DNA of 64,000 bases from the NCBI GenBank assembly GCA_965178125.1, contig OZ237747.1, positions 744,001 to 808,000 of the forward strand, read 5' to 3'. Both the position numbers and the translations under genes were made by a program. Positions 1 through 48,862 of the stretch are shown in pieces; position 1 is the first letter of the stretch, and each line of letters opens with the position of its first letter. The notes below the pieces were generated by a model that was given only the letters and a program-made list of their open reading frames with translations, searched no databases and was not told the origin of the DNA. Origin of the DNA: Bilabrum cf. latius (Eukaryota).

Positions 1-2909
1 GAACCGGGCACAGACACAGACCCGGACGGTCGTCTCGAGCCAAGCTAGCTGCCGCGAGTGGCACTCCGGCGGCGCGCTGACGCCTTGGGAGCCATAAGTC
101 TAGCCTTCTGCCGACTGTCGGCCGGCGCAGTAGCTACAGATGCCTTGCCTGTGACGCCAATGCGGCCGACTCTGCCTGTGGCAACAAGAGGATCGGGCAC
201 GCTGGCCGACGGACCACGCGCGCTGAGGCGGGCACGACTGCTCTGCTTGGATGTCCTAGATGCCTGCGACCTCTTACTGCTGCCTCCTGCGCTCCTTGCA
301 ACGGACGCCACGGATCGCGCCTTTCTTTGCGATGATGATGATGCTCGACTGGCTCCGCCGACCGACCCAGCTCTGCTCCTCCTCGCCGCGCTGCTCACGG
401 ACCCAGACCTGCTCTTTGACGCAACGGGTAGGCCACTGCTGCTTTTCGAAGCCTTCCGCCTGCTTGCTACTGAGCCGGACTTGCGCGATGCATTGCTAAG
501 GCTGCTCCGCCGCGGTGGAACTGAACTTGTCCGGTTCCTGCTGCCTCGCGAAGAGCTAGCTGATACCCTGCTGCTAGAGACCGCTTTGGAATGGAGCGGC
601 GGTCTGCTGCTGGATCGGTTCACGGTTCCTGCCCCTGCATGCTTCAGACCCGTTTCTTCGTCCGAAAAGGAGGCGCTCCTACCTCTCCCACTTTCACCGC
701 TGCCACTGCTCGGCGAGCTCAAGGCGGAGGCAGCACCTCGGACGGCCCACCCGCCGAGCTCGAGGTCACGGCTGTCACCCTGCAGGTCGTCCTCGTCCTG
801 CTTCTCGTCCTGTCGTGCATCGTGTTGGCTACCCTGCAACCCGTGACGTGTCTCGTCACCTGCCCCGATCGGCGCGTCGCCCGATCTAGCGCCCATGTCT
901 GGGATAGGCAAGTCGGGCCGCTGGCGAATCAGCAAACCTGGCGGGATGCCAGAGCTGTCTGAGGACTGCCCAGGCGAGGAACGCAAAGACACAAAGTGGG
1001 AAGGCTCCGCAGAGGCTGGCACAAGACCGCTCAGCGCATCTCTCGCGACATCAACCTCTTGCCTGTCATTTGCAGGGCTGGTCGCGTGCTGGGACTTGAC
1101 GTTTGCACTTTCTGGGGATGACTGCTGCTCACTCTTCGCTTGTTGCGAGCTACCATCCGCTAGAGCTGGTGGAGTACCAGTATCAGAATTACTGGGCCTG
1201 CCTAGGCTGCCGTCAGCATCAGCACCGTGCTAGCGGTCACTACCAGGGGAAGCATCCTCCTCCTGCTCGTGCTCCTGCAGCTGCTGAAAGGGCGAATCGC
1301 AAGCAAATCCAGAGGCAGCCGCTAGAGCAATGCGAGCTCTTTCTGCGTCAGATAGGAGCCGCCGACCAGCCGGTGACTCGGCTCCAGGCCCGGCAACGGA
1401 TGCTGACGCTCGCCTGGACCTCTGCTTGTGGGAGTTCTGTGTTTGTGCCTTGCTGCCATGACTTGGTGCCGCGCGGGGTTGCTTTGGTGATACAGTAGCC
1501 TTCAACCACAGCTGTTCCTGTCGGCTTACCGATTTCCGGCTTTTTTTGGATTGCTTTCCGCTGCTTATCCGGCTACGGACGGATGTGGAGAGGCTGTGGC
1601 TCCTTGCTTGTCTCGCCACCCTGCTGTCCTTCCGGCCTGCGACAGACGACGAATCTCCGTCTGATTTCTTGCTCTTTGACCTGCTTGAGATGCTCCTGTG
1701 GCTATTTGTTTCATTGATGATGCCAACGGGGAAGCCGCCAGGTCCCAGTTCCGGTGACTTGTGGCTGCCACGCGCGCTGCCATCCACACGCATGCCCCTG
1801 CGGCTGCCTCTGCGACCGCTGCCACTGCCACTGCCGCTGCTTGCCGTGCTCCTCTCACCTCCGCTGCCGCCATTGCTCCCTCCAGTCGACGGTGCACTGC
1901 TGCCACCGCCACGGCTGACGGCCCCGCCGCTCTGTCCTCCGCCCTACGCGGAGGCAGCAGCAGCCGAGCCAACGCTCGCACCACCGTGCTGAGGCAGACC
2001 CGCCACCGCTGCACGGACGGAGGCAGGATGCGGAGGCCTGCTCTGGCTATGAGCGTCATCGATTCGAGAGTCCCAACTCGGAGCACTTGGCGCCTACGCG
2101 TTCCCCCTGCAGTGCGATGCACCTGACGCACTGCCGGCCATCGGTGCCGCGGCCAGCAGGGCTCCAGCCTCCTGGCCGCTGCTAGAGGACCCCGCCGACT
2201 GCCCCGCTGGAAACACGCCACTTTGGGCTGAATACGCTTCTGGTGGAACGGTGGCTGGTGGTGTCATGCTTTGATCGTTGTGTGCCTGCTGTCCTCGTTG
2301 CTGTGCGAGCAGGGCGGCCTCCTGCTCGGTCAACGCACCTCGCTCAGGCACTTGCCCGCCGTGTAGGCTTGGGACTCCCTCTTGCTGCTATAACTACACA
2401 TGCAGTGCCTCGCCGGCGTACGATGCAGCAGAGCGGGTGTCTTCGTCGAATGCACGCTGAACTTCACCCCCCCGCTCCGGGCTGGCCCGCCTCGAATTCG
2501 GAGGAGGGGCGAATGTGCGCTCGTACCGCCGATCTCCGGCCCTCCATGCTTCATCAGGTAGCATAGGACCCGATAATGACGCAAATTTTGAACCGTGCGA
2601 CCTTGCAGAGTGCCCCAAACGCCGTGCTAGAGCTCGGCGGTTTCGTTCTGACTGAAGCTGATCCGACAAATTTACTCGGGCGGATACGTGAGGCCAATCG
2701 CTCAACAACACAGCAGTAGCAAACTGCTCTGAATTCAGGTCAATGCCTGTATCAACCTCGTACTTGTCACTAGGGGCGTCTTGGCGTGCAAGTGCGGTTT
2801 CCACTGCAAGATCTAGTTCATCTCTTTCCATGTCAATCACGCCATTCTATGTGACATTATCACCTATTGCCTGTGCAACTCTGCTATCGAGGGAAGATGG
2901 GCTGTTCAT
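1..2909 (-). CDS. Hypothetical low-complexity Ser/Arg/Gly-rich protein, 3' end outside the window (TAG=Gln)
   Basis: ORFs 2394-2840, 2094-2351, 1230-1793 and 45-1022 share one frame and are separated only by TAG (2847, 2394, 2388, 2094, 1944, 1230, 45). The first ATG after an upstream TGA is at 2909 (MNSPSSLDSRVAQ). One TAG pair lies in a Gln run: V-TAG-L-TAG-CAG-CAA-E. Confidence 0.7.
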
Positions 2910-3007
2910 GATAAATGTTCGATATCACGGTTTCAACGAATGGAAATCCGAATTTCCGCCCGCCAAAAGACTCGTTACAAGTACCCCGATCTTGCCGGGT
3001 GTCCGAC

Positions 3008-6000
3008 ATGCATGTGCAGCAAGAACGCCTGGTTTGGGACTATTACGTCAAGGAATTCGGGTAGGCTACAAGTGCAGTCCGCGACATCACTCATTGTGTG
3101 CTCGACGCAATTCGCGACCTCAAAAGCTCGACGGGAACCTCGGCTGACCGAGAGGCTGCAGGGCAAGCGGTTACGCAGGCCGTGTCCTCCGTCAAACTGC
3201 TTCTGCAAGGATGTTTCACGGCAGCAGCCGAGACTGTTACAGGCCGACAAATGGCAAACACCGGCCAGGCCGGGCACGTAGAAGCGTCACGCAAGCGCCA
3301 CCGCAGGACCTGGGCGGCACGGACGAGATGGGCTGAAACGTGGGGAAAAGCCCATGCCAGCCTCAAGGCCCTTATCGCGGGACCAACCACGGAACAAGCT
3401 CTTTCAGAGGCCAGAACATGCTTGGCTGCACATCGCCGAGCCAGCCTGCGCCTCGAAGGGCGACAGCGGGGGCTAGATGGACGGATGCAGGCAACACTCT
3501 GGGGGAGCACAGAGGTGAACCAGTAGGCCAATGAGGGACAGGAGTACTGGACGATGCTCCTTGCCAACCTGGACCATGATCGACGGGCTGTTTTCGAGAC
3601 CACCGAGCGAGGGGCACGCAGGACGGGCCACGCACTGCGGAACATGCTGGGAACAGCAAGTCCGAGGGAAGCCCACCGATAGATCGCTGATGCAATCTCT
3701 AGAAGGCAACGAGCTGCACCAGGACTGGAACCAATCACGAACCTAGGCGGAGAGGTGCTTACGGCCGTCGAGGATATCCTAGAGGCACACGCACAGCAGC
3801 TCTCTCACGCAGGTGGGAATGGAAGTGCGGATGTGGGCGGATTTATGGCCAGGATTGCGCCGCACATGCCCAGGGCAGCGACACCGCTCAACCTATTCTG
3901 CAGGTCGAACGCAGAGGTGGATCAAGCACTGGACAAGCTCAAGCACAACAAAGCTGTGGGACCTGATGGGATCAGGGCGGAATTGCTGACCAAATGCTAG
4001 CCATGCTCTGAGGAGGACGGGTGTCTGCGGCGAAGTGACGCTCTGTTGGACCTCCTCAGGGCCATTTATAATCTCACACTCTTCTCGGGGATTCAGCCTG
4101 AGGCCTTTCAGGAGGGGTTCATGCGGCCGGTCTCCAAGCGCAAGCAGGGCACAGGAGTCACAGGAGTCGACGAATTCAGGCCAATATGCTGGACCTCGGC
4201 TCTCTCGAAGGTCGTAAGCACCATCGCAAACCAGAAGGTCATGTGGTACTGCGAAAACCACGGACTCTTCGGCCAGGATTAGGCCGGATTTCGCATCGGC
4301 AAGAACTGCCAGCAGGCCTACTCAGCGGTGATGGAATGGATTACCCAACGAAGGGGTGCTGGAGGTTTTCTGGTATTCTTTGACATCAAAGGAGCATTTG
4401 ACAGTTGCAAGTGGAACATCATCGAGGCCATCATGACGGAGCAAGGATGGGGACGCCAGACGGTCCGCTTTCTCATGGCCCGCATGCAGGTGGCCATCCG
4501 CGTTCGAGACCCACTCACCAGGAGGGTCTCTACCAGAGTGCAGAAGACGGCGGGCACCCCCTAGGGCGAGATTCTGTCTCCCACCATCTTCCTGGTACTG
4601 ATGGGGGTTCTCCTGGAAACGCTGCGGAAAGAGAGGCTCCAGCACGGGCACCATCAAAGGATCGTGACCGACACCGGACGATACGTTGAATGTGGACAAG
4701 TCGGGTACGCAGACGACTACGTGGCACTGACGTCGAACTGGAACGAAGCAGTGGCGGTCATGAAGCTAGTCAAGAGCCTGTTTGCACTTGCGGGCATGTA
4801 GCTGGGAATCAAGCCCCTGACAGCATCGGGCCAGGGAACCAAGACAGCGATCATGGCCTTTGGCTACGCTCGGGACTCAATTCCTGGGGACATGCCAGAG
4901 GGCGTCGCATGCAGAGCAGCGGACGCGGGAGAGACGGATGGGGAGTGGACCATCCCACTTGCCTCATCCTACCTGTACCTCGGTCTACTCATTTCGACCC
5001 AACCAGTACGGATCAGCCCAGATGAAGTAGCTGGGCTGACGCAGGCGAGAGACATCTGGGTAATTGATATGGCACCCCACGTACGCAGGAGGATTGCGAT
5101 GGCGTACCGGGCGGCCAGGGACATCACACGAGCGGCGGTGAACGGCAACTGGGCGGTCTCCCTGCACGCCCAGCTGCTCCATGCAGGAGCAATCACGAGT
5201 GCATTCTACGGAGCAGAGGCAGCGGCATGTGCAACAGGATGGGACACCTTGTCAGGATTAGGATATGGTTCCCAAGTTTTCTACGGGATGGAACTGAACC
5301 TGGAAGTCCTCAAGATGCTGGACAAATTCCTGCTAGATACGCGCTGGATGATTGTCAGCGGATCGACACAGGTAAGGCCCTTCACCATGGGCGGCCGATA
5401 CGTGCCAAACCTTGCGATGGACACTGAGCTGCTGACGGCATCGGCAGCAGGGCGTGTTGCTATGGGCCTGCTGGACCTGATCGAGTGTCCCTCGAAGAAG
5501 GGCCTTGATGTTGCGGCCAGGTTCATCCACCAGGGCCGATTCCTGCAGGGACCACCAGTACAGACAGGCCCACTCGGGGCCGCGCTGGCACTGGGATTCA
5601 GGATCAAGATGGCAGGGTGGACCCACCGGATCGATGACGCGAAGGACTGGCTGGGATGCCAGGAGACTGCAAAAAAAGTCACAAAGTGGAGGAAATCCAA
5701 ATCCGGAGCTGCTGACCGATCGTTCACAAGCCTGAGCCTGGGATGCTCGCACGATCCGGCACTGTCGGATTGGGACCGGGAGAGAGCTGCGCTCGGAGTG
5801 GTCATGCTTAACCGGTACGCAACGAAGGGACGGTATGCCTTCGGACCAGGAGCCATGCCAACAGCAGCGGTGGTGCAGGAATACGGCCACCAAGGAAGAC
5901 GAATTCTGCGCATCCGAGCTGGACAATACCCGCAACAGGGCACGCCCAACCTTCAAGTGATGGGCACCGCGGTAGAGCAGATGGAGCGGGCCGAGCATGA

Positions 6001-6595
6001 CCATCATGCCGGAACGAGACCGTGGCAACCCGATGATGCGGATCAGAATAGAGGGAGGTCCCCTGCCTCTCTCCGGAAAGCATGGGCGAAGACAGCTCTC
6101 GCTCAGGACCCTTGGGACGAGAAGCTGGAGCGCACCAGCAGGGCCAAGCCAATCGTCGAAGACGCACTCACTCGGATAGAGCGTACGATTGCACGGTCAT
6201 CGGAACGGACAGCTGTCAAGGAGCTGGCCAACCGAGTGGTGCAGGTGATCAGGAACCAGCTGCGCTAGCAGGAGTAGCTGACGTGCAGGCAGTGGATGCG
6301 AGGCGATGCGGCGGCTGCTCTTGCCGCCACGGCCACGCAAGAGCTGATAGCGGCAACCAATGCGAACGCTCGGCTACAGCGACGGATGTTTAAGCCCCAC
6401 GGCTTGCTAAGGGACATAGAGAGGCAATGGGCCAAAGGCATGAGCGCGTGCATGCTAGCCTCTCTGAAGGATCGTGAGACGCAGAGACGGTCATGGAGGA
6501 GGAAATGGTGGGTCCCGGCAGGGGACCCTGATGTGGGACTGGACCGCGCTTTGTGCCGGGCACATGCTCCGCACCTGTATGCTTTCTCCCTGTGA
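3008..6595 (+). CDS. Non-LTR retrotransposon reverse transcriptase (~1,195 aa with TAG=Gln)
   Basis: One frame with 9 in-frame TAG, ending at TGA 6593-6595. Motifs: KAVGPDGI, FRPICWTSALSKV, D(TAG)AGFR, FFDIKGAFDS, GTP(TAG)GEILSPTIF, YADD, YLYLG. Confidence 0.9.
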
Positions 6596-6803
6596 AGGCA
6601 TCAGGCTGAGGGCTTGTGGGGGACCACATTGATGGCGAATAAAGGGGACTCGGCGGTGTAGGCTGAGATTGGGGGGCCTTTGGCCTGAAAGGGTCGGGGG
6701 TCTTGTAGTCCTTGTTTGAGGACTCCTCTGGATTCAGGTGATCACTCGAACTCCTTCGGGGGCAACGGTGCATCTGGGTGCTTGTGGAATCTTTACCCAA
6801 CAA

Positions 6804-6826
6804 TGTATTTCTGTATTTCTGTATTT
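6804..6826 (+). repeat. (TGTATTTC)x3 tandem tail at the retroelement 3' end
   Basis: tgtatttc tgtatttc tgtattt seen directly. Short tandem 3' tails are typical of CR1/L2/RTE-type LINEs. Confidence 0.75.
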
Positions 6827-6866
6827 GCCAGCCGTCCTTCCGGCATTCTGGCAGTGTCGACACATC

Positions 6867-9800
6867 ATGCGGTCATCCCTTCAGCTTCTAACTAGCCTCA
6901 TCGTATCGGTGGGGCTGGCATCCGCAACCATTTCGCTACCGAAGATCTTCGGTGACCACTGTGTGTTGCAGACCAACAACGAGTACGGGGCGAGAAGCTT
7001 CATTTGGGGGCAAGCCGAGCCAGGCGAGCTAGTTACGCTTAAACTCAGCTCCGATACCTATCAGTCGCTTGCAGATGCTAAGGACGGAACTTGGAGCGTG
7101 CAGTTGAACCCAGGGCGAGGGACGGCAACTCACACTGTAACAGTCACGGGCTCAGTTAGCACGAATACCGTTCAACTCAACGATGTTGTCTTCGGAGACG
7201 TTATCCTTGTGTCTGGCCAAGTAAGTAATAGCTGTACCTCTGAAGCACTGCAATTGCACACTGACTTCTGCTTGCGTACGACGCCCTACGCAACAGCGAT
7301 CCTTTCGCCGGACCATTTCTCCGCCCGCAGTCAAACTCCGTATTTCCCGTGACCAACATGTTCGGAAGAGACGAGATCCTTGCGAAGGCAAATGACCCGA
7401 AGATCCGCCTGTTTAACGCCGCGATGAACTACGCCGAGCAGCCGCAGTACGACCTCAAGAACGGGACGTGCGGCTGGTACAGGAACTCGACCTGCAACAA
7501 GTGGCAGCTGTCGACACCGGAGGTCGCTAGGGACTTTAGCGCCATCGGATTTACTACGGCTCTCAACTGGAAGCAGATCTTTGAGGGAGACGGGTACATC
7601 GGCGTCATCGAGTCCGCAGTCGGCGGAACCCCCGTCTAGGACTGGATGCCGGCTGCCGCTTTCAAGTAGTGCCCTGGCTCCAACGAAGAGGCGGAGCACG
7701 CCAAGGAGACACTCCCGCGCATGGCCAAGCCCTGGCTAGGACACGCAGAGCACGACACCATCGCACCGGGCAAGGACGCCCGCGCGTACAACAAGCTGCT
7801 GAAGCGCAGCCCCCTCGCAAACGAAGTCGGCCCAGTGGCCGGCCGCGCCGCCGCCATGCAAGAACACGTCCTGCCACTTGTGCAGGCGGGCGACATGGAA
7901 GCTGCTGCTGCAGCCGAGGAGGAGGTCGCAGCGCAGTTCGGTGCAGGCGACAAGGACTCCCAGCTGTACAACGCCATGATTGCACCCATCGCTGGGTACA
8001 GCATCCGGTATGCTCTCTGGTACCAGGGCGAGCGCAACGCGGCCGAGGGCACTGGCGAGGCGCTATATTCGTGCTACTTTGGCGCCATGATCGAGCAATG
8101 GCGCAGAGCTTGGGGGATCGGCGACTACGCCTTCGTCTACGCTCAGCTGGCCCCGGTGCTGGCAACCTCCAACTTCACGTCGATCCGTTTGGCCCAGGAC
8201 GACGACAGGGCCAAGAAGGGCGGGCGGATGTCTACCACCGGCATGGCGGTGACCATCGACCTCGGCGACAAGTCCTCCCCCTACGGCTCCGTGCACTCGA
8301 GGAACAAGACCGAGGTGGGACGCAGGCTCGCACTGCAGGCCCTTTGGGCCCAGCGCGCAATCCTGCCCCCCCAGAACAACTTCAGCAGCCCTTTGACCCT
8401 GGGACCCGCGGTGCAGACCGGCAATGGGGCAGTCAACGTGCCTCTGGACCCTGCCACCCTGTACGGCGGGGCGCCTGCCTTCTTCGGCACGAGCGAGTGC
8501 ACGGAATGCTGTGCGGGCGCCGTCGATCTCTTCCAGGTGACGAGCGACCCCAAGGGGGCCGAGGGGTGGGTGAACGCCACTTCCTTCTCGGTGGGTACTG
8601 ACGGCGCCAGCATCAACGTGGGCGTGCCGTCGACCGACGGGGCATACACGTACGTCCGCTTCTCTGCGCAGAACTACCCCGAGTGCACGCTGCACAACAC
8701 CGAGGGGATCGCCATGGGTCCCTTCATCCAGGCCATCGGCAGCACGGCCAAGGAGCTTCAGCGGGGCATCGGGGAGCAAAAGTAGGCGGAGCGCGCCGCA
8801 ATCCGGGCCAAGGTGTCCAAGACAATCACCCGCAGCAGCGTCGGTATCTCCGAAAACCCCACCCGTGAGTCTTGTGATAACGCACCATAGTGCTGACTGC
8901 ATGGTATGACTGTCCAGTCGTATGCGTCTACTTCTGCTAGATTCAATCTGTCATTTTTTGTTTCGATTTGGTGCCCCACGCAGCTCCTATTGGTCTCAAC
9001 ACCTGGAACCTTGCGTGAGTGCTAGGGGGCGTCCTGGGGGATACTGATACTCCAGTGCTTATCACGTCCTGTTCGGAAGGATATACACGCCCATAGATCT
9101 TGATATTTCCTAGTTTCTCCTAAACGCAGCCACTGTAACACCGGCGAGCAGTACAACGATTTCATTGGACAGGCATTGTACGAGACCGGCCTGTCCCAGG
9201 TGAAGACCATCATCAACGATGACTGCTGGCAGGCTGCCCGCAACTCCACGGGGTTCATCATCCCTGACCCCGCCCGCTTCCCCAACGGCTACGGAGCTGT
9301 TGTGCAGAAGCTCAAAGACTACAAGATCGAGAGCGGCCTGTACACCGCGCGCGGGTGAGAGTTGCTCGAGACCTGCTTTGTGCATCGCATTGCATTGCAT
9401 CACATCGTCCTGCTGCAAGCCCACAATCGAACGACTGTAGGGGCCTGAGTGGCTGCGCATCGTTGCATCTGCGCGAGCTTCATGTGTTCTAATTTGAATG
9501 ATTCTTTCCGCAATGATCGCAGGAGCCGCACGTGCCAGGGCCGCCCCGGGTCCTACAGTTTCGAGGCGCAGGACGCTGCCTACTACTGCGAGATCGGGCT
9601 GACGTTCACCAAGACCGACGCGTGCGGTGGCACCGAGTGGCCGCAGGTAAACACCTCCTGGATCCGCTTCGCTGAGGGCTTCGAGAAGTGCAAGCAGGAG
9701 ACGGGCCGGTCGATCTTCACGTCGGTCGAGTACTGCAAACCCGGGGAGGAATGCCTCGACTGGGTTGGCAACCTGACCAACATGTGGCGGGACACATCCG

Positions 9801-10357
9801 ACATCCAGGCCAACTGGGACAAGGTGCTCTACAACGCGGACCAGAACATCATGGAGGCAGGTGCCCTGAAGCGTGCCCAGTTCCCCGACCCTGACATGCT
9901 GGAGGTGGGCCAGATCGGCCTCGACTACGACGAGCAGAAATCGCACATGAGCCTCTGGGTGGTCATGACTGCCCCACTGCTGATCTCGGCTGACCCCACC
10001 CGCATGGACCCGGAGGTCCTGGAACTGCTGAAGAACGATGAGGTGTACGCTGTGAATCAGGACCCGAACGTGGTCATGGGGGTGCGGAGGTCGCCTTCCA
10101 ACGCGACGGGCACCGAGGTGTGGAGCAAGCCGCTGCAGGACGGCAGCGTTGCGGTGCTCCTGCTCAACCGCGGGGAGGATGCTGCCGACATCACGGCCGA
10201 TTGGTCGTTCGTGGGTCTCCCCGCCGGCGCTTCGGCCGATGTGCGTGACCTGTGGGAGAAGAAGGACGCTGGCACCCACTCGGGCTCGTACACCGGCACC
10301 GCCATCCCGAGGCACGGGTGCGAGCTCGTGCGGGTGACGCCGAAGAGCGTCGCTTGA
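6867..10357 (+). CDS. Secreted sialate O-acetylesterase-like (SGNH) domain fused to GH27 alpha-galactosidase
   Basis: Signal peptide MRSSLQLLTSLIVSVGLASA. Exons 6867-7220, 7331-8864, 8984-9014, 9130-9354, 9523-10357. Esterase motifs: GQ|SNS, GGTPV(TAG)DW, LYNAMIAP, WYQGE, VHSRNK. GH27 motifs: TPPIGLNTWN, DDCWQ, KTDAC, WRDTSDI, DPDMLEVG. In-frame TAG at 7637, 7667, 8783. Ends TGA. Confidence 0.85.
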
Positions 10358-10715
10358 ATGTGATTACTTAACGCATTCGTGGCGATGTGTGCATGCGGTG
10401 AATGTGCCTCCTGATGATAGGAGGTGGTGATTCGACCGACTCGGGTGGGGTGGGTGGCTTGTCGTCCAGCTTGTGCATTGCCGGAATCACCACTCATGTA
10501 TCCGATTATCATATCGACTAATATATCTTATATGTAAGAAGTAGGTCAAAGTCAAAGCAATAAACGGCAGCAGTGGATAGACCATTGCACCCCGTTCGCG
10601 CGTGGGCGGATCCGAAGCGACTAGATAGCCCGTGCGACGTGATCTCAAAAACACTATCGAGATGGCGCAATAATCCAGCCGATCATCCTATCGACTGTCT
10701 GCAGTTGTGCTGACC

Positions 10716-11508
10716 TCAGCAGACCTGCGTGCAGCCTACCGGCCTCTAGAAATGGGAGGGCTCCGGCTGGAAGAAGGAGATTGACTCGACATCCCACTGC
10801 TTCAGTGCGCTGTGCTTGGTTTCGTTGTACCGCACCATTTCCTGGTTCCTGCGAAATAAAACGAACAAATTGGGGCGCTACCATCATGGGTGTGTTTTTG
10901 CGTCACGGTGGTCCAACCGCCATCCTCAGTGGCTGAACACTCTCTTACTCGTCCGCAGTGACCCAGTAGTGGTTGGCGTCGTTGCCGTACACGAGCCACC
11001 CATCGACAGCACGTCCGTTGATATCGCCCCGGCCTAGATAGGTCGGGTTGTTTGCCTTGAGGAAGTCGGATCGGATGGCAAGGTTGGTGGTCCCAAATGC
11101 CTGCTTCACCTTGGCTGAACAGTCACAGCAGCCAACTTTGTCAGGTGCCATATCCCTGGTGGATACGCCTGCATCAGTGGCTGGGCTCGATGCGTTGTCG
11201 TACTGGATGTACACGCCCTCCAAAGCGTTGATCACCGAGCATGCCGCCCCGGGGACGTACGCACTGCCGCCGCAGTAGACACAGAGCTCATCGGAGCCAC
11301 CGGCGTGGTGGTCGTAACGATCCACGGCAATCTTTCCGGTTGAGTCGTAGAAATAGTTGAAGAACCATTCAGGGTGTGCAGGCTCATCGGCGGGATCTGT
11401 CATGTGAACCATGCCTTCCCAGAACTTCACGGAGCTATTCCCACCCCAGTTCGGGATTGATGGGTCTGCGTTCGCAAATGCGATCGAAAACAGCAGGACG
11501 GAAAGCAT
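10716..11508 (-). CDS. Secreted Cys-containing protein, ependymin-related-like
   Basis: Signal peptide MLSVLLFSIAFANA. Intron 10849-10948 (gtaaga...cgcag). Motifs GCC, YLG..DINGRAVDGW and C-terminal PEPSHF(TAG)RPVGC resemble ependymin-related proteins. Ends TGA. Confidence 0.6.
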
Positions 11509-11654
11509 TCTCGTACCGGATTTGTACCAGAGTCTTGTGCGGGGTGAATCCACGAGTGTTCGATGTGGCGCTGCGCAATGCCTGTGCGGAACCAGCTCAT
11601 CAGCAATGTCATTTCTCTTTCTATCTTACTTATAGCAGACTATGCCCTCCCTTG

Positions 11655-14600
11655 TTAAAGCTTGGCCACGCCAGGCGACTTGCCCTTCCTCGCGCCAGCT
11701 CGCATCAACTCCAGCGTCTAGAAGGCGGCGGCCATGGTTTGACTCAACTGGCGTGCATGCCAGTGCACGTGCCCGTGCACCGTTCTTTGGCGGCGATCGA
11801 CCACCCACCGCCGAGGAGAATCATTGCCTCCAGAAGAAGCAGACATGCTCATGTTCTCCAACGAACGAAGCCGGCGCTCCACTGCCTAGCACAGTGCCTT
11901 GTGCATTGCATCGCCCATGGAACCCGGTGGAAACCCCGACCCTTCCCCTATCCTGCCGCGACCGTCAGCTACAAAGACGAATTGCCTCAGTCCGTTCGCC
12001 TTGAGGTCGAGGGCGCCGTGCCGCCGCAGCACGGCCATGGGCAGCTCGCACTAGTCACACTGCAGCACCACGAAGCAGGCGCCGTGGGCCGGGTGCAAAG
12101 ACTCCACCCGGGCCCTGGTCTGGTCCCGCTCGTCACACCACCGCACCAGCATCCTGCTGGCCGCTCGGCTGCTCCGGTCAGCCCCACCGCTTGTTCCGCT
12201 GCCACCGCCTGCTCCGAGACGTTCCACTCGACGAGTCACCACTGGCATCGGGTCTCCACTGGCAGCGATGTCGGTACTTCCCGCCTTCGTAAGCCCTTCA
12301 GCCACGCCATGGCTGGTACTGCCAGCAGCACCTGCTTCATCTCTTTCTTCTCTAGCTTTTACACCCCTTTCTGAGACAGCCTTGCTCGTGCTTGGGTCCG
12401 GAAACAGGCCTTGCTCAGGCTCCACTCCCAGTGCCCTGTCAAGAGTCGTGGCAGCGGGGCGACCACGGGCCAATGGCACGGTACCACCCCTCGGATCCCG
12501 GTAGATGAACGAGGAGGAGGAGGAGGAGGAGGAGGAGGAGCCTGCGCCGCCCTTGTGCCTTGGCACGAACCTCAGGTACTCGGCTGCCGAGTCGAAGCCC
12601 CATCGCACCACTGTGTCTCCCGGACTCGTGCCCAATGATGCCTCTCCGCTAGGCTTGATCATGATATTAGGCCACTGCCATCGGTCGTATCCGACGCAGA
12701 TCCAGCGCGTGCGCCGGTGCAGACGGCACAGATCGCAGCCTTCAATGTCGGCAAGCTGCGATCGGAACCCGCGGTTCGGCCGGATGCATTTTCGTGATGT
12801 ACGTAGCAGCTCGGTGGCTTTCAGTGATGACTACAACCCGCGTCGCATGAGAAGATACGCAATGCATGTCGTCGCTGACCGCGACACCCCGGCCGTGCAA
12901 TGGACGAGCACGGCTCCAGTGCGTCCGTTCCACGCGAGCCCCTCGTCGATGAAGTCGCATACAGCGTGAAAGTGCTGACATATCTACTCGTCAGAAGCAT
13001 CATCCAGCTGCAGCGACAAACAACAGCAGTCATGCGGAAAGAATGGACGACGCCGCAACGAGTTTGTGCGAATTTCACCGTTGCAGGCGATGACATGGGT
13101 TATGCCAAACTTTCTAAAGAACGCAGGATCCCGGGCAGCAAGTGTGCCTGAAATGTAGAGCCTCTCGACGAGAGGTACGCTGTGCATACCAGCAAGCCCG
13201 CTCCATTTGTCTTGCAAAAGCTGCACCAGCTGTGTGGACATCGGCATCTCCTAGGCTTACCCCCGGTTCGCGTCTTCTATCAGAACCATTTCTTCGGCCT
13301 AGACGAAAGAAGCGACGGCACCTAGGGCTAGTCTGGCTCTCGTTGTTGCCAGAGGCGCGCTCTGCTTGTCTTCCGGTTTATTGCTCTGGCAGCGGGCAAG
13401 CCACGGCGCAGCAGCGACCATTTCCGATGCGTCGCACTGGTCCGCCCATTCACGCTATCGGCCACTGCTACTCGCCCTATGAATCGCGGCTGCGAGAGCG
13501 TCACCAGCCACCCGCCCCATGGCCGCTTCGAGGCCGTCACCAGCTCGTGGACTGCCCTGCCCTTCCCTAGTGCAAACAGGCCCGGATGCGCGAGCAATTG
13601 CATGTGCGAATCGTGCTGGTGGTACCAGCTTAGCCTACATTCCCAAAGGAGCTGTGCCGCCATTGGGAGCGCCTACTGCGGCAGAGCTGGCGGCGGAAGC
13701 TCCACAAGGCGTGCTAGGCGCCGTTGCTGGACCATCGACGCTTGCGCTCGCGCCCTCGGTGACCTAACCATTGATCCGATCCCACGATTGATCCACGTCG
13801 TCATCGCCCCACCCGCCCCCTCCACCCTCCTCCCAGTGCACCGTCCTCGATCCCCACGTCCTGCCCCACCCGGTCGCCTCCGACCGCCTGGCTCGCAGCT
13901 GATCCACGGCGCCTGCCGCGAATTGATCCACGGCGCCCAGCGCATCCAGCCGCCTGGACTTCCTACTTCCGGTTTTGCTTCCCCGCCCGACGGGCGCAGC
14001 TGCTTCGAAGGCGCCCGCGACGGCGTTCAGCTGTGCCTGCCTCAGCTCCCCAAGGCGCATGCCCATCGGTCCCAAGCACTTGCTCGCCTCACCCACCGGG
14101 GATGCTCCCCCAACTCCAGCTGGTGGATCTGCCCCGCCGCTTGCCAGCAGATTGTCGCTGCTCACTGTGGCTCGAGCACCTGCTCGCAAAAATACCGGAA
14201 GTGGGTGCTCCTCTAGACTGGTCGCTCTCTTGCTCCCCACGTTGGCCGTGGGGCAGCACTCTATGCAAACGCCGTCTCGAACCGCCTGGGCTAGCAAATC
14301 ATCCTGGCGGTGCACGAGTTGGATGCCGTGCCCGATTCGGTCCACGCCCATGGAGAGAGCGAGCGCGAGACCCTCTTGCGATTCTTGCCCGGGCCACTCC
14401 CCTGAGTGCACGGTCAGGCCGATCGCAGGATGCTTCGCGGCTAGTCGCTTGACTGAAGATTCAAACAGATGCAAAGGCCACTTCTGTTCGTCGCCGGCGA
14501 TGTCGAAACCGACGACGGCTGCACCGCCAAGAGGCGAGAGCAGCGCAGCTGCGCGTCCGGGTGCCGCCGACCAGCCACTCCTATTCTGCGTATCAGCGCG

Positions 14601-15313: not shown

Positions 15314-18300
15314 TCACGACTCCTCCGCCGCCAGCTGGATTGCCGCGATCTCAGCCAGGAGGTCGTCTTTGGCGTCGGGCACCGCTGCCTCGGCCTGCTG
15401 CTGCTGCTCTGCCTGCAGCTGCTTTTCCAGCGCGTCCAGCTCGGCCGCCTTTGCACCAGTTACCGCCGCCTTGGGCGACCCTCGCCTCGTCGCTCCAGCC
15501 GCACCGGCACCAGGGGGCGACCCGGCGTCCCTGTTGGTGAAGCCGTGGACGTGGCTCGAGTAGACAGAGCTGGCGACGCTCCCGTTCCCCGCCAGCTTGG
15601 CTAGGGCGGCCCTCTCCGCCTCTCGCCTCATCTCAGCTGCGGGATCCCTGGACTCCTCATCGTCATAGTCTCCCTCGCCCTCCTCCCCATCGCCTTCCTC
15701 CTCCTCGTCCTCGGCCTCACCGCCAGCACTGATCGCCTGGTCGCTGATCATCCGCTGCATGGCCTGCTCCCGCATCTTGGCTTCCTTCGCTTCCTGCTCC
15801 TTCCGTTCCAGCTGCTGCCTCAACGCAAGCACCTCCGCGGATTCCCCTGGGGCACTCCCCCCGCCTGCGATGGGGGAAGGTTCTCCTCCCCCCCGGCGAG
15901 AGCGGCCCCTGCCTCTGCCCCTGCCTGACGATGCCAGCCTCGAGCGACTGCTGGCCCGGGCAGGCCCGCGGCGAGCCGCCTCCTCCTCGTCGATTCTCCG
16001 CTGCGACATGCTCCTCCTCGAGGCCCTCCTCCTCATCCTCTTCGCCTCCTTTGCCTTGGCCTTCTCCTCCGCCTCGATAGCCTCCTTTCTGGCCCGTGCC
16101 GCTGCTTCCACTGCCTGCGCCGCGGAGATCTGCATCACCACAGGGTCGGGCTGCGCCGTGTCGTCCGTCTGTTCGGCGAATACCGCGCCCCAGTTGCGCC
16201 TAGAGTCGCGGCGCCTCATTCTCTGCTGCTTCTGAGCCACTGCCTCCTTTTTGCTGACAGGGGAGGCGCTGGGCTTCATGCCGAAACTCGAGTCCACCGC
16301 AAGGTCTTCGGGGAGCGCCTTGGCACTGGCACCGCGGGGGGATGAAGACGACCTGCGGGAAGACGACCGCCGCATGGAATGAGAGCGGGGAGAAACCCCT
16401 CCAGACACCGAGGCCCGGGGTGAGGACCCAGGCCTGGCCACTGTTCCCTCGCCCCGCCTGCGGGACATAGAGGCGCTGCGGGTGGGCCGGGGGGCCGAGC
16501 CGCCTGGCGACCCTGCCTCATCGCCCGTAGGCAGAGCCACCGGCGATGCGCTGTCACCGCCTCTCTGCGCGAGTGCGCCGAGCTGCTGCTGCAGCTGGGC
16601 GAGGACCTCTGCCGCTGCAGACGCCGTCACCTGCTGCTGCGGCTGCGCCTTCTGCTGCACCCTTGGCGGCGGCGGTGGTGCCACCCGAGGCGCCTCCCTC
16701 GAGTTGTACATGTCGCTGGACTGCTTGCGCGCGGGTTTGGGCGCGCCACCTCTTGACAGAGACCTCTCCCTGGCCGCTGCCTCCTCTCCCGAAGATGCAC
16801 CGCTGTGATCGGCGCTGCCCAGCGGCCTAGTGTGGGCAGACGGGCTGCCGGGGTCCACGGACTCGTGGCCGAGCACGGGCTGGGCCGGGCCCCTGGCTTG
16901 TTCCCTGGCAGATGTGAAAGACCCCGAGGAGGCGCTGGACACCACTCGGCCCCTGAATGAAGACGTCGGCGACACCTGCGGCTTGCTGTCCCTGAACGAC
17001 CCCTTAGAGGCCAGGCCCAGGGCCATCAGCGCGCTCGGTCTCCGCTTCAGCAGGGACTGCTGCTGCTGCTGCTTCCTCGCTCCGCCGGGGGATGCCGCCG
17101 GCTGCTCTGGTGTCTCGGACTGGCTACCGTGCGGCAAGCCCGCCCTGCGCATGCTGTCGCTCGTCTCGGCTCTGCCGATGGCCGCGTGGTCTACGCGACC
17201 CGCCACGCTGCTGACCAGCTGGGCGAGGGAGGGCTGCCTCTTCGCGAAGCGCGATCTGCGCTCTGCCACCTCGGCGATGGCCCGACCCTCGGCTGAACCC
17301 ACACCGGTGGGAGGCATAGAAGGACGCCTCGCGCCCTGGTTCTGCCACGTCTGCAGCGCGCCATCCTGCGAGGCATCGTCGCCGTACCGGGGACTGCTGG
17401 ACGGCAGCCCGATCGCCGTGGGGCTGCCTCCAACAGACCCAGTCCCGCTGGCGTTCTGCTGGCGCCTCAGCTCGTCCGCGACGTGCCGCGCCTCTGCAGC
17501 GGCCCTCTGCTCCTCCTCGTACTTGCGGCTGATCTTCCTCAGAGCATCTTCAAGCTCCTCGTTCCTCTTCTTCTCGTTCTCGAGATCCTCCGAGGCGCGG
17601 GTGAGCCTGGACTTCATCTCGGCGGCCACGCGGAAGCCGTGCGAGGCCTCCCGCAGGTCGTTCGTGGCCTGTGCCTGTGCCTCGCGCGCCTCGTTCAGGC
17701 GCTTCTCGAGCTCCTGGCGCTGCTCCTCCTCCCGCTTGATGGCTGCGGCCTTCTCCTCCTGCACTCGCTGCACGGACTGCTGCAGCCGGCTGCGTGCCTC
17801 CTCCTCGGCCTCTCGCAGCTTGCGGTCTTCCTCCTCTCTCGCCTCTTTGAGCCTTTGCTTGAGCTGAGCCTGCTCGTCTGCGGCCCTCTTCTGCGCATCC
17901 GCGGCTTCCTTGAGCTTCTCCTCGCGGTCCTTCTGCGCGCGCTCGATCTCGGCCTGCAACTTCCGCTGCTAAGACTCGTGCTCCTGGGAGAGAGCCACCT
18001 GTTTCTCGCCCGCGGCCTCCTCAATCCTCTTCTTCTCCACCTGGGCCGCCTCCTTGAGCGCGTTCATGCGGTCCTCCAGAGCCTTGGCCTCGCTCTTCAG
18101 GCGCTCTTGCTCCAGAGCGGCGGCTTCCTGTAGCTCCTTGCGGCTCTGCTCCGCGCGCTGCTCGGCGCGCTTCCGCGAGTCCTCCAGGGCATCCAGTGCC
18201 CTCTGGTGGTCTTCCTTGTCGAGGGCCTGGCGCTTCTCCAGGTCCTCGATGTCCCTCTTGTGCTTGGCCTCCGCTTCGGCCTGCTGCCGCTTGGCCTCAT

Positions 18301-21300
18301 CTCGCACCTCTTGCACCTGCCTGCTGAGGTCATTCGCCCTGCGCTCGGCGGCCTCGGCTCTCTGCTTTGCCATGCGGAGCTCTTCCTCCCTCTATGCCAG
18401 CTGCAGTCGGTGCTGGGCCCCCAGCTCGTCCTAGACCTCTCGGCGAGCCTGCGAGGCAGCCAGAGCCCGCTCCTCCACGGCCCTCTGCTGCAGCTTCCTC
18501 ATGGCCGCCTCGTGCTTGGAGGCCTCCTGCTCCAGCGTCTCCTTGGCCGTGGTTGCGGCCTCCTCTGCCTTCTTGGCCCTAGATTGCGCCTCCTGTTCCA
18601 CCCGCAACTTCTCTTGAGCCGCTTTCTCCATGAGCGCGCGCATCTCGTCCCGGGCCGCGGACAGGTCCTGCTCGGCCTTGGACTTGATCTCCTGGGACTC
18701 GCTCCGTGCCTGTTCCCGGGCCGCGGACAGCTTGGCCTGCGCCTCCTTCATGGCGGCGTCCAGCTCCTGCTGCCTGAGCTTGGACTCCTCGGCGGCGCGC
18801 TGCTCAGCCGCCTTGACAGCTTGCTGCCCCTTCTTGACGGCCTCGGATTGCGCCTGAACCGCTTCCTGCCACTGCCTGCGGTGCTGCTCCGCCTCCTTCT
18901 GCAGTCGGAAAGCAGTCCGAGCGTGCTCCCGGATGGTCTCGCGCCTCGCTGAATCCGCGAGTGCAGCAGTCTCCTCCATCTGGAGCCGAGCGTACTCCCG
19001 CTGGCGGCGCTCACGCGCCGCTGCCTGCCTGGCTGCCTTGGCCTCTGCCCGAAGCTGCTCAATCTCGCTGCGCTGCTTGGCGGCCTCCTCCTCCTGCTTG
19101 CGCATCTTGTCCCTTGCCTCGGTCTGCATGCGCTCGAACTCGGCCTTGGCTTCGGTCAGCGCCTTTTCCCTCTGCTTGCGCTCCTCGTCCGCCGCGATCT
19201 TGGCCTGCTGTACCTCACGCATCTGAGCGTCTGCCTGCACCCTGTGCCTCTCGGCATCTTCCATGGCCTGCTTCTGCAGCTGCTGGGCCTTGGCTTCCGA
19301 GGCGGCCAGCTCCGCGGCAACACGCTTGGCCTCGGCCTCTGCCCGTTCAAGCACCTTCTTTTGCTCGTCCACATCGGCGCGCGCCTTGCGGGCGGCCTCT
19401 CCCTCGGCAGTGGCACGCTTCTCGGCTGCCTCGCGCTCCTGCATCTCTCGGGCGATGCGAGCCTCGGCCTCGGCCACGATTGCGGCCGCTTCCTCGCGCA
19501 GCTTCGTCTGAGCGTCTTCCTCGGCCTTCTTCGCCTTGCGCTCGGCAAGGGCGGCCTGCACGCGGGCGTTCTCGGCCTCCAGCGCTGCCTTCCGCTGCGC
19601 CTCCGCCGTGCGCCGGTCGGCGTCGAGCTTGGCCTCTTCCGCCTGCCGCTTGGCTTCTTGGGCAAGCCTGTCTGCCTCGCGACGCATGGCAGCCACCTTT
19701 TGCTCGGCATCGCGCGCTTGCTGCCGAGCATCTTCGGCGGCCTTGGCGGCCGCGGCCTCGGCTGCTTTTGCCTTCTTCTCGGACTCCTCGGCGGCGGCCT
19801 GGGCCCGCGCGTCGGCCTCTGCGGCGGATCGTTTCGCCCTCTCCTCCGCCTCCTTGACTTTCTGGGCAGCCTCCTGCCGCACCGCCAGCTTCTCGCGCTC
19901 TTCCCGCCTCAGCCGGACCGTCTCACGCTCGGCAGCCTGGGCCTCCTTCTCTAGAACAGCCTTGGTGCCGAAGCGGAAGCTGCCGCTGCGGGCCAGGAAC
20001 CCGCGAGCGGCTGCCTGCATGCGCACGGCGGCCGTAGCTTGCTTCGCCTAGGCCTCCTGCCTGTTACGCTCCCTGCGCAGCGCGGCCACGAGTCCCGTCG
20101 GGGACCTCGCACGGTGCCCGCGCACCGTGGCCTGGATGGCGACGGCCGCATCGTCCTGCTTGCGCAGCCTCTCTTGCGAGGCCCTCGCACCGCTGATCAT
20201 CATCTCTGGGCTTGAGGAAGCGCGGCGCATGGCGCGGCGCATGGCTGCCTGCAGTCGCATGGCGGCCTCTTCCTCGTACTTGACCTGCTGCTGCCTGAGC
20301 TTCTCCTTGCGCTCCCGCTCCGCGGCCCGGCGACTGAGCATGCCGCGAGTGGTGGCCTGCAGCTTCACCGCAGCAGTTTCCTTCTCCTCCATCAGGCGGG
20401 CGCGCTCCACCTCCTTCTTCATCATCTTGAGCGTGCCGGTCGGCGAACGTACGAGGAAGCCGCGCGCGGCCGCCTGGATCTTGGTGAGAGCCTGCTCCTG
20501 GTCCTCCTGACGGCGCCTTGCCCTGGCCCTAGCCTCTGCCTCCTTGGCCATGAGCTCGGCGCGGCGGATCCTGGCCTCCGTCTCCGCCCGCTCCTTGGCT
20601 ACCTCGAGCTCCTCCAGGCGCCTGGCCTCTTGAAGCCTAGCCATGCGGTCGGTTTCCTCCAGCCTCGCGCGAGTGTCTGCCTCTGCCTTGGCCAGTGCCG
20701 CTCTCCGCTGCTCAAGCTCCTGCTGCAGCTTCTCTTCGGCCTTCTTGAGCTCCTCCATCCGGACCTTTTCTTCCTCCTTGAGCTTCTGCTCGCGCACCTT
20801 GAGCTTGCGCTCGCCCTCCTCCTGCTCCTTCGTGAGTGCATCCTGCATTGCCTTTGTCCTGGCCTCGATCTCAGCACGGCGAGCCTCCACCTCCTTAAGA
20901 AGCTCGGCCTCCTGCCTCTTGGCCTCCTCGTCCACCTACATGAGCTCCTCCTTCTTGGCGGCCTTGGCTACCTCCAACTCGCGGCGGCGCTGCTCCGCGC
21001 GCTCGGCGATGGCGTCCTCTGCCTCCTTGAGCGCCTGCCGCTGCTGCTCCACCTCGGCCGCGGCCTTCGAGGCAGCGGCCTCCTTGGCGGCTGCAGCTCG
21101 CTGCTCCGCGGCGGTGTTCTCCGCTGCCTCGCGCCGTGCCTCCTCGGCGGCCTCTTCCTGCCGCTTGGCTAGCCGCTCCAGCTCCTGCTTCTGTTCGTCT
21201 TCGGCGCGCTTGCGGGCCTCCTCGATCCTCTCGAGGGCGGCCTTCTCAGCTGCCTCGATGGCCTGCCTTCGCTTCTTGGCGTCCTCTTCGGCGCGCGCTT

Positions 21301-34031: not shown

Positions 34032-34413
34032 TCCATAACTTGACACCTTCTGCCTTTTTGGTGCCTATATTCACTGCTGTGCCGCGCATTCCTGCGGGTT
34101 TTGTGGTTTGGGTCTCAATGATGTAGCGCGCACATTTGATATTCCAAAAATTGGCAGCGCAAAACCTGCACTTTTCTAGCGCTTACCTTCGACCTTTAGC
34201 GGTTCTTACGAGCTTATTTCTCAACAAACCGTAAGAAATTATAGTACATAATCGCATCGTATGATAATTTGGGCATTGCTGCGTACATTTGCGGCCAAGA
34301 CTGCAGCCTTGATGTGTTGCATTCGTTTCTGGATCGACGCCGAGAAACTCTCCATCTGCTTGCACTTGCCCTACACAGAGTGGTTCCAAGCAACTTACCG
34401 TAACTTGGAAGCT

Positions 34414-46650: not shown

Positions 46651-48862
46651 TCATGCAGGATCCACCGCATGAAAGCTCGCGTGTCCGGCCAAGATGGCCT
46701 CTCGGACTACTTCCGGCTTTTGGCGCTCCGCCTTCGAATCTCCAACCTTGTCACAGCACAGTCTCACCGCACACAACAACAAGCGCTTCCCTGCTTGCCT
46801 AGCGCCACGCAAAGCCGCAGCAGCGTGCAAATTCTTTGAGAAAAGTATCCCCACATCAGCACCAGAGTATCCATCGGGCAGGTGCAGCGCTACCTCTGCA
46901 TCACCACCCGGTGTCATCATAGAGCCCACCGGGACCACCAACACGGACCACGTAGAGTGCACCTCACCAGGCATGCCGTCATATGCCATAAAATCGGTAC
47001 CAAACACCGCACCGTCCTGCAGCGTCCATCCCTTGCGCATCAGGGCAAGAGCTCCACACGCTCGGTGCCACACAAGAGAGTCGCTAGCTTGCAATCGGGA
47101 CAAGAGGAAATTGAGGGAAGCTGTGGGCTTTGATGTTCCACCCTTTTGCGCGTCACCCGCTCTGCTATCACTAAATGAGGCTCCAGAGGCCGTTTCACCG
47201 AAAGCTCCCAACAAACCCTGCCCCCCTGCTGCAGGACTCGCGGCGCCGGTGTGCTGTGCAGCCTCTGCCTCTGCTGCAGCCCCGGGTGTTCCAGCGCTCA
47301 TAGCCTGCAACCTCAACGCGGGGTATCCAGGCACCAGCCCAAGTGCAAGTAGAACACACTCCGGAGTTGAAAGATCAACTGTGCATGGGCTGTCCTGCCA
47401 GGCAGCACAGACCTCCGGTTGCATTGCAATAGGAGGGGCGTTTCCTTGACTTCCTGCAGCGGCTTCGTGTGGGCTCTCTTCCAGAATTCCATCTCTAGCG
47501 GAATCTTCTGTAGGCTTTCCGGCAGCTTCCGATTCATCCACCGTTGCAACGAACAGCCTCGATCGAGCCCAAGAAGTCCTGGCCTTCCAACGTGCAACTG
47601 GCTTTGCTTCCGCCACTCTCATGGCCTTTGAGGAACTCAAAGCAGTGCTACGTTCGTCGGAGCCAGCGATTGCAATGGATGGGCCCGTTGCAACGCCTTT
47701 CGTCGTCGTTTTCTTGCAGACTTTCCCTAGTCTGTGTGTGAGTTCAGCAGCTGCATCCCAAGAAGTTTTTGCAGCACCCGCATGGCCTGCTTTGCGGCCG
47801 CTGTGCGCTTCAGAGCTACCTGCAGCCCCATGAGCTTCTCTTGCTTCGCCAACAGAACTTGTTTTTGCCGGAGCATGGGCGGGTAATGCAGCAGACCCCG
47901 ATACCCGCGGAGAGTCCAGTCCCGGCACCTGAGACGCTGATGGATCTATTACACTTACAGCTGAGCTGTTTCGCTCGTGAACCACCTTTTGAATGGTGGA
48001 ATGCAGGCGCTTCTGGTCAATGGTTGCGCTTCCTGGCACCACTGGTACCACAACGACGGCAAAGTTGGATTCGTATGGCTGCTTGCTTCCCCTGTGGCAA
48101 GGTGCCGGGCCTGCCGCTGGCTCTGTTGGGCTGTGCGTAGTTTTAACCACAACGACAGCAACCCTGGATGCAGCCCCTGTGAAGGTCTAGAATGCATGCT
48201 CTATTCTATCCAGGAATCTATTCGTGTCGTGATGCCCTAGTTTAGCGGCAGCTCGTGCCGGCTCAATGCGGATGTCAGTTCGAGGGGGTATTCGGCGAGA
48301 TTTTTGGCGACTTCTGGTGGCAGTATCGATGCCTGACCAGGCATCTGATCCAGCGTTTACCCAGTCAACGTCAGCTACTTCGCTGGATGCTTCTATCGGA
48401 TAAGATTCGTGCACACACGCATCAGCGAAGCCCAGCTTGCCGAGCCTAGCACTGTCAACTACAGCTTGCCATGATAGACATTCAGATTCCTTAGAAGGAG
48501 ATACAAATGGAGCATCAGACGACGCTGAGCCTACAATATCTACCTAACTTGTGCTAAAGTCCATGGTACTCGCAAAGATACCTGCAGAATTGAAGCACTT
48601 CGCAAGTGCAACAGCCGCAGCCCGAGACAGGATCACGTTTACTTGGGCGGAAATTTGAGAGCCAGAGGACACATCACCAATACACTGATGCTAAAGCGCC
48701 TGCGCGGTTCAAGATATGCACCGAAGAGCGACCAAGCGTACCAACAAATGCTCTTGCATTGCCTCCGTCTTCAAATGGCTCGCTTACGTGCGCAACATCT
48801 CCGCACTTTCCAACGAGCTGGGGGCGCACAACACCCTTAACTTCTTGAAATGCGACTTCCAT
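46651..48862 (-). CDS. SEN2: tRNA-splicing endonuclease catalytic subunit, Sen2-like
   Basis: C-terminal DLSTPECVLLALG ... GWTLQDGAVFGTDFMAYDGMPGEVHSTWSVLV ... RQAGKRLLLC retains the Tyr/His/Lys triad. The frame extends upstream through TAG at 48187, 48544 and 48691. Putative intron 48700-48787 and start at 48862 are less certain. Ends TGA. Confidence 0.7.

Follow-up and report, generated by a model that had tools for sequence, protein, structure and literature searches.

A probable 5'-truncated LINE copy in Bilabrum cf. latius that uses its host's UAG codon for glutamine

The mobile elements of ciliates, among them the REP elements of Tetrahymena, the LINEs (long interspersed nuclear elements) of Paramecium, TBE of Oxytricha and Tec of Euplotes, are written in the reassigned codons of their hosts. 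The subject of this analysis is a reverse transcriptase (RT) frame with nine in-frame TAG codons, located in a 64,000-nucleotide stretch of contig OZ237747.1 of Bilabrum cf. latius (hereafter the window, to which all coordinates refer). The LINEs of Paramecium and Tetrahymena form a clade of their own and end in short repeat tails, and the genetic code is not discussed in those sections of the source that deal with them (PMC5405496). Reassignment of UAG to glutamine with UAA kept as a stop is set out for the fornicate Iotanema spirale (PMC5304391), and UAG-only changes have been described in some phyllopharyngean ciliates (PMC11687900). Within the literature searched, a UAG-only glutamine code is described for Iotanema spirale alone, next to the UAG-only changes of some ciliates. 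The variant code in a further paper is a plastid code (PMC12480563), and transposons are not treated in another (PMC12153298).

The segment from 2996 to 6826 is very probably a young, 5'-truncated and dead-on-arrival copy of a multi-copy LINE, residing in a host that reads TAG as glutamine. Under translation table 11 the region is a run of short open reading frames (ORFs); with TAG read as a residue, a single frame is open from an ATG at 2915 or at 3008 to the TGA at 6593-6595, the longer reading (P0001) comprising 1,226 residues. This plus-strand frame includes nine TAG codons, no TAA and one TGA, the terminal codon at 6593, in agreement with the first-pass annotation, which had reported nine interruptions, all of them TAG, and no frameshift. 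TGA occurs 9-42 times and TAA 2-8 times in the five remaining frames over this stretch, with 22 TGA in each of the other same-strand frames. The C-terminus of the open frame is reached without a frameshift, and the same C-terminus occurs in a relative. The QAGFR, FFDIKGAFD, GTPQGEILSP, YADD and YLGL motifs all lie within the RT core, and the best matches of the RT among solved structures in the PDB are R2 and LINE-1 ORF2p (E 1.9e-6 to 5.7e-4). The frame is that of a LINE-type retrotransposon lacking long terminal repeats (a non-LTR element); the earlier identification of a retrotransposon is upheld by the RVT_1 match, these structure matches, the multi-copy depth and the repeat tail. Neither a second copy of the element nor a repeat of its ends, as LTRs would provide, is present within the 64-kb window. 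Pfam recognises no ORF1, RNase H or zinc-knuckle domain in the window element or its relatives, and no endonuclease domain in the window copy.

The host code in the window is one in which, of the three standard stop codons, TAG alone encodes glutamine and TAA and TGA remain stops, the pattern of NCBI table 15. In six host ORFs, 53 of the 636 glutamine codons are TAG (8%), and the element, with nine among 68 (13%), uses TAG at about the rate of its host, also at invariant RT positions. In-frame TAA does not occur in the ~13,000 codons of these six ORFs; use at the rate of TAG would predict ~11 there and 4.6 in the window element, which has none either. As TAA is never found in frame in the host or the element, only TAG has been reassigned. 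TGA closes four of the six host ORFs and TAA a fifth, the sixth extending beyond the window; among the ORF ends examined, TGA is the terminator at five of seven and TAG at none. Three of these ORFs code for a DEAD-box helicase, Ku80 and a DM10/EF-hand flagellar protein (Rib72). The helicase is an orthologue of DDX46/Prp5, and the TAGs at its residues 629 and 696 align to glutamines of human DDX46 and yeast Dbp2. TAG is also needed as a sense codon in five further host genes recognised by Pfam, which encode a SASA esterase, a PHD-finger protein, a tRNA-splicing endonuclease, a dual-specificity phosphatase and an adenosine deaminase.

Relatives of the element were sought among 1.84 billion representative proteins, for which the 150 best matches were listed. 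The listed matches with at least 40% identity are short fragments only, as is expected of gene calls broken by TAG, and none is a long standard-code protein. Besides fragments of the element itself, they include matches at 42-55% identity, all of 410 amino acids or fewer, with cluster members reaching 628 amino acids; the nearest long database proteins among the matches listed combine APE and RT domains, some with RNase H, at 25-34% identity. A weak search for longer proteins related to P0001 found none. Some of the fragments lie on metagenome contigs; an earlier profile matched nothing in these contigs, and a scan with a later profile gave four loci, L001 to L004. No related loci were found in viral or prokaryote genome contigs. 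With TAG read as glutamine, one ORF covers at least 2,781 amino acids in L001, has 38 TAGs and reaches the end of the contig without a stop; the single ORF of L003, likewise with 38 TAGs, amounts to at least 2,231 amino acids, and L002 has an ORF of 1,029 amino acids with 15 TAGs that ends like the window ORF, its stop being TAA and its tail (ACTT)n. L002, at 92% amino acid identity to L003, is a truncated and decayed member of the L003 family.

The reading of TAG as glutamine is borne out by this family. The first-pass annotation had placed two of the TAGs on the QxGFR and PQG motifs, and both sites (4280 and 4562) align to glutamines of R2 in the PDB sequence match and are confirmed as glutamine in the relatives (codons in Table 1). 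Database fragment P0168 has glutamine at the 4280 site, as do all seven database fragments that span the 4562 site at that position. In an alignment of four family members, namely the window copy, L001, L002 and L003, TAG is set against another codon 151 times, 36 of them glutamine, where glutamine overall makes up 5.3%, a 4.5-fold enrichment; arginine (21) and glutamate (15) follow, and TAG faces TAG in 20 further comparisons. In-frame TAA and TGA are absent from the 7,236 codons of the four elements (CAA counts 20, 52, 42 and 22), and from the 6,041 codons of the three relatives, whose TAGs stand mostly at other sites than those of the window copy. L002 and L003 have four TAGs in common, differ by seven exchanges between TAG and CAG or CAA, and show one other change at such sites. 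The proposal that the family has long been resident in this code is thus strengthened, and on these comparisons the family has clearly diversified inside the TAG = glutamine code.

The first-pass annotation had also raised the alternative that active or consensus copies carry CAG at these sites. Contigs of four public runs (X2, X5, X7 and X8) were compared with positions 1-12000 of the window, and the copies seen at high depth keep TAG. Shared high-depth contigs of X2, X5 and X8 differ from the window at three positions between 2996 and 4155, none of them at a TAG, and at no position between 4161 and 4560; the TAGs at 3062, 3524, 3680, 3998 and 4280 are all present in such contigs. In X2, a DNA run, TAG is kept by ~740 of a depth of 910 at 4562 and by ~857 of 1,026 at 4799. 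These runs also contain a divergent subfamily, with 75 differences in 559 nt, in which the codon at 4562 is CAA and that at 4799 CAG. Third codon positions account for 27 of the 36 listed differences to this subfamily, and 27 of the 32 changed codons are synonymous if TAG is glutamine, TAG to CAA and TAG to CAG included. This excess suggests that both lines, the window family and the divergent subfamily, evolved under selection at the protein level. The TAGs of the element are glutamine sense codons and not C-to-T decay specific to this copy.

An intact ORF, in contrast, as proposed in the first-pass annotation, is not borne out. Contigs that cover 2996 onward extend further upstream, by 1,103 nt in X5 and 438 nt in X8, and X2 and X8 agree in all of the 30 letters that precede 2996, which by eye continue the frame of the ORF without a stop. 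P0001 is 35% identical to the L001 protein (E 3e-143) over its residues 187-1069, which match residues 1781-2680 of the latter, and the relatives encode ~1,600 amino acids, an APE-like endonuclease among them, ahead of the point where the window copy starts, which lies a few tens of residues past their APE-like region. Other copies thus extend at least 1,103 nt upstream of 2996 and the relatives continue for ~1,600 residues more, which argues that the window copy is 5'-truncated; the ATG at 3008 would then be an internal methionine of the full-length protein. The motifs conserved between L001 and L003 in the upstream region are ones that we take to be of the APE type. With the low-confidence model of this region as query, the top 12 Foldseek matches are LINE-1 and TRAS1 endonucleases (E 3.8e-9 to 2.7e-7, TM ~0.5-0.6), and on this modelling the relatives are predicted to carry an APE-like endonuclease region upstream of the RT. 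A PDB sequence search with the full relatives returned the RT only, and a profile of the APE region retrieved only its own cluster. Before the endonuclease the relatives have ~1,100-1,300 residues with no Pfam match, and after the RT ~600 residues in which Pfam detects neither a C-terminal CCHC motif nor a PD-(D/E)xK endonuclease.

Some further features of the relatives were observed. The N-terminal regions of L001 (761-4627) and L003 (93-3479) are 21% identical, and both have hydrophobic segments near residues 260-310. A G-x-C-A-V ... H-[YF] motif pair is conserved in these regions, a possible resemblance to cysteine proteases. Fragments of the window family (99% identity) and of a second family (~49% identity), among P0015, P0016, P0171 and P0179, occur on 10,228-nt ENA contigs that are possibly one; if so, one genome would contain two diverged families of the lineage.

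The bounds of the element, 2996 to ~6826, were set by 31-mer overlaps, with locus-specific contigs covering 1-3025 and resuming from 6800 and shared high-depth contigs starting at 2996. The element is therefore wider than the ORF delimited in the first-pass annotation, adding a 3' untranslated region (UTR) and a repeat tail beyond 6595. Summed depth in X2 is 40-49 in the flanks and, inside the element, 405 at 2801-3200, 644-767 at 3201-4400 and 1,058-1,320 at 4401-5600, rising further to 2,038 and then to 4,182 at 6001-6400 and 11,760 at 6401-6800. Such an increase towards the 3' end is the pattern of LINEs, in which 5'-truncated copies have the 3' end in common. In X2, position 6816 is joined in two cases, across a few letters or more of the tail repeat TGTATTTC, to copies beginning at 5743 and at 3328, which thus represent further 5'-truncated copies, and another copy continues past 6816 in a longer run of this unit with small variations. 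No empty-site joint across 2995/6827 was found in the four runs. The predicted fold of the 3' UTR of the window copy does not surpass that of shuffled sequences (z -0.03) and that of L002 mildly better (z -2.0), and no stem-loop is claimed. A separate observation concerns the last ~160 nt (6670-6826), the depth of which is far above that of the rest of the element and reaches 67,863 at position 6798 in X2; one alternative upstream sequence, common to X2, X7 and X8, is joined at 6670. This 3'-most module may be a SINE (short interspersed nuclear element) or another family that has the 3' end of the LINE.

The history of the copy may be pictured as follows. Full-length members would encode one giant polyprotein of ~2,800 amino acids, starting with an N-terminal region that has no Pfam match, followed by an APE-type endonuclease and a linker, and closing with the RT and a long C-terminal domain. 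Such members would be copied by target-primed reverse transcription from the 3' UTR, which ends in a short tandem repeat, and an early stop of reverse transcription would yield 5'-truncated copies like that in the window, which keeps the linker, the RT and the C-terminal domain and would have lost the endonuclease and everything ahead of it. In this host CAG to TAG would be a synonymous transition, and TAGs may pile up and swap with CAG and CAA under purifying selection, rendering the ORF of the family unreadable under the standard code.

A number of points weigh against this interpretation. No tRNA gene, a suppressor tRNA-Gln(CUA) included, was found in the 64-kb window. The PDB E-values for R2 and LINE-1 ORF2p do not discriminate the LINE clade, and a target-site duplication could consist, by eye, of at most the GC or GCC common to both edges. 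Summed contig word depth does not equal copy number. The architecture of the full-length element is drawn from relatives with 31-39% identity and from a 1.1-kb upstream contig that was not read through, no full-length copy of the exact family of the window having been recovered; for the endonuclease, the Pfam Exo_endo_phos match on L003 (E 0.0066) is below its cut-off and the AlphaFold model of the APE-like region is of low confidence (mean pLDDT 43.9). The synonymous excess comes from a sample, 40 of 368 differences being shown, and the contigs of other copies gave no direct view of the TAG state at 6266 and 6275. Finally, the RNA origin of X5 and X7 is deduced from spliced contigs only, no run being recorded as RNA.

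Four other explanations were considered. A dead relic under the standard code, with TAGs that arose as nonsense mutations by C-to-T decay, would fit the fact that all nine interruptions are of the CAG-to-TAG type, and the copy is non-autonomous in any case, yet this explanation is extremely improbable. The frame contains 20 CAA, 21 CGA and 29 TGG codons, each a single transition from TAA or TGA, and none has changed, against TAG at nine of 48 CAG/TAG sites; chance or plain decay is thus an unlikely cause, the probability of sparing all 41 CAA and CGA codons at an equal rate being, by our arithmetic, 0.81^41, or ~2e-4. Decay confined to one copy also disagrees with the shared high-depth contigs (TAGs from 3062 to 4280) and the majority of depth (4562 and 4799) that carry the same TAGs, with host genes that require TAG as sense and with relatives holding 38, 38 and 15 TAGs and no TAA or TGA. 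True decay looks otherwise in this family: compared with L003 by eye, L002 has a CGA changed to TGA. It is very unlikely that TAG is a sense codon for another amino acid, or is read as stop or sense depending on context. Arginine and glutamate do come next opposite TAG, and the ORF ends examined number seven, but these two residues are the usual substitution partners of glutamine, which is itself the enriched residue; the invariant sites (QAGFR, PQG and the helicase motifs compared with DDX46 and Dbp2) show glutamine only, and none of the seven ends is a TAG.

The remaining two explanations accept the code and differ on the nature of the element. A complete, autonomous RT element of 3.8 kb that lacks an endonuclease and starts its intact ORF at the ATG at 3008 is improbable, despite the position of this ATG 12 nt inside the 5' boundary, the 1,195 open codons and the complete set of RT motifs. 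One shared sequence continues for at least 1,103 nt upstream of 2996 in other copies, the relatives have ~1,600 upstream residues with an APE-like domain, depth rises towards the 3' end as in 5'-truncated LINEs, other copies start at 3328 and 5743, and within the L003 family L002 is truncated to a comparable degree. A domesticated, single-copy host RT gene could account for the open frame and its tight packing between two host genes, and is hardly credible in view of a depth 9-260 times that of the flanks, the breaks of the contig graph at the edges of the element, the repeat tail and the joints from this tail into truncated copies. The 5'-truncated copy of a multi-copy LINE, with TAG as glutamine, is the interpretation retained here.

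Two divergently transcribed host genes flank the element, which lies in the gap of ~126 nt between their start codons (2909-2995 plus 6827-6867); from its tail to the right-hand ATG the distance is 40 nt (Table 1). Both genes are still represented in RNA-derived contigs, one of which spans 16-2907 of the left-hand gene. For the right-hand gene, contigs of X5 and X7 lack four GT..AG introns, indicating that these runs derive from RNA. The same runs carry element contigs at depths comparable to those of the neighbouring genes. With regard to expression, which the first-pass annotation had proposed to check, these contigs are transcripts of the family, of which the strand is not indicated, and do not show transcription of this particular copy. 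The host DNA in the window is GC-rich (about 55-68%), gene-dense and intron-poor, and an Rfam scan of the window gave no match. Both of the longest host ORFs are intronless. Inspected by eye, that of 4,935 amino acids has nine near-identical repeats of ~70 amino acids together with long coiled-coil and IQ-like stretches, and that of 4,016 amino acids combines Asp/Cys-rich with EGF-like repeats and carries a membrane anchor at its C-terminus.

Table 1. Coordinates of the element, its in-frame TAG codons and the host genes in the window (aa, amino acids)
Feature	Position	Strand	Basis or remark
5'-truncated copy (very probable) of a multi-copy non-LTR (LINE) retrotransposon	2996..6826	+	contig breaks, depth
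Remnant ORF, 1,195 codons plus TGA stop	3008..6595	+	open only with TAG as a residue
Reverse transcriptase core RVT_1	4166..4804	+	PF00078, E 1.3e-17, residues 418-630 of P0001
In-frame TAG, Q50 of P0001	3062..3064	+	variable position
In-frame TAG, Q204 of P0001	3524..3526	+	variable position
In-frame TAG, Q256 of P0001	3680..3682	+	variable position
In-frame TAG, Q362 of P0001	3998..4000	+	variable position
In-frame TAG, Q of the QAGFR motif (G-Q-D-[Q]-A-G-F-R)	4280..4282	+	L001 CAA, L003 TAG, L002 TAG
In-frame TAG, Q of the PQG motif (G-T-P-[Q]-G-E)	4562..4564	+	L001 CAA, L003 TAG, L002 CAG
In-frame TAG, Q629 of P0001	4799..4801	+	L003 CAG, L002 CAG, L001 CGG
In-frame TAG, Q1118 of P0001	6266..6268	+	variable position
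In-frame TAG, Q1121 of P0001	6275..6277	+	variable position
3' untranslated region	6596..6803	+	most abundant part of the family in DNA run X2
3' tail, 2.9 copies of TGTATTTC	6804..6826	+	repeat that closes the element
Left host gene, Ser-rich, 7 in-frame TAG	3..2909	-	transcribed away from the element
Right host gene, exon 1 (signal peptide, then SASA esterase PF03629)	6867..7220	+	intron 7221-7330 from spliced contigs
Host ORF, 4,935 aa, 13 TAG	15314-30121	-	
Host ORF, 4,016 aa, 12 TAG	34261-46311	+	
Host ORF, 1,190 aa, 11 TAG	48861-52433		
Host ORF, 946 aa, 7 TAG	52609-55449		
Host ORF, 1,178 aa, 3 TAG	56582-60118		

A resident transposon written in the variant code of its host is to be expected, so that the core phenomenon is ordinary and it is the family that is new. 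The element provides independent evidence, tested by selection, for a UAG-only glutamine code in a GC-rich eukaryote. Standard gene callers shred this family in environmental data; among the 150 best matches listed from 1.84 billion proteins there is no close standard-code relative, and the family may therefore be usable as a marker for recoded lineages in such data. It is also a natural test case for whether a change of code isolates mobile elements. The first-pass annotation had suggested that the code would bar transfer to standard-code hosts and could help date the reassignment; for such a barrier, the short fragments that make up all listed matches of 40% identity or more would be a consistent but weak hint. 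A more far-reaching and tentative proposal is that these elements represent an undescribed LINE lineage with a giant ORF of ~2,800 amino acids, in which ~1,300 amino acids with hydrophobic segments and the Cys/His motif pair of L001 and L003 would precede the endonuclease. Such a lineage might be confined to, and have co-diversified with, a clade of UAG-only-glutamine eukaryotes, locked to their code by up to 38 TAGs; TAGs shared at invariant sites, such as that of QAGFR in the window copy, L002 and L003, might bracket the age of the reassignment, and the ~160-nt 3' module might be its SINE partner.

With APE-type LINEs such as LINE-1 ORF2p, TRAS1 and CR1-like elements, the window element has in common the RT match, the endonuclease-like fold of its relatives, the 5' truncation and a 3' tail of short repeats, the tails of CR1-type LINEs resembling its 8-nt repeat tail. 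It differs from them in that its relatives have one giant ORF, 2,781 amino acids or longer, and in that the frame is readable only with TAG as glutamine. R2 is the best PDB match for the fingers and palm of the window RT (E 1.9e-6), but R2-type LINEs have a restriction-like endonuclease, whereas the relatives of the window element have instead an APE-like domain on the N-terminal side. Membership of the R2 type was rejected on the absence, by Pfam, of a C-terminal restriction-like endonuclease with a CCHC finger from the 600 residues after the RT. The mobile elements of ciliates are likewise resident in recoded hosts; those hosts have reassigned TAA and TAG (or TGA) and are AT-rich, whereas the host of the window has reassigned TAG only and has a GC content of about 60%, and its 64 kb of contiguous, intron-poor genes fall outside the genome style of ciliates. 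Iotanema spirale resembles the window host in reading UAG as glutamine with UAA as a stop (PMC5304391), and differs in that TAA is there given as the primary stop, while TGA terminates five of the seven ORFs examined in the window.

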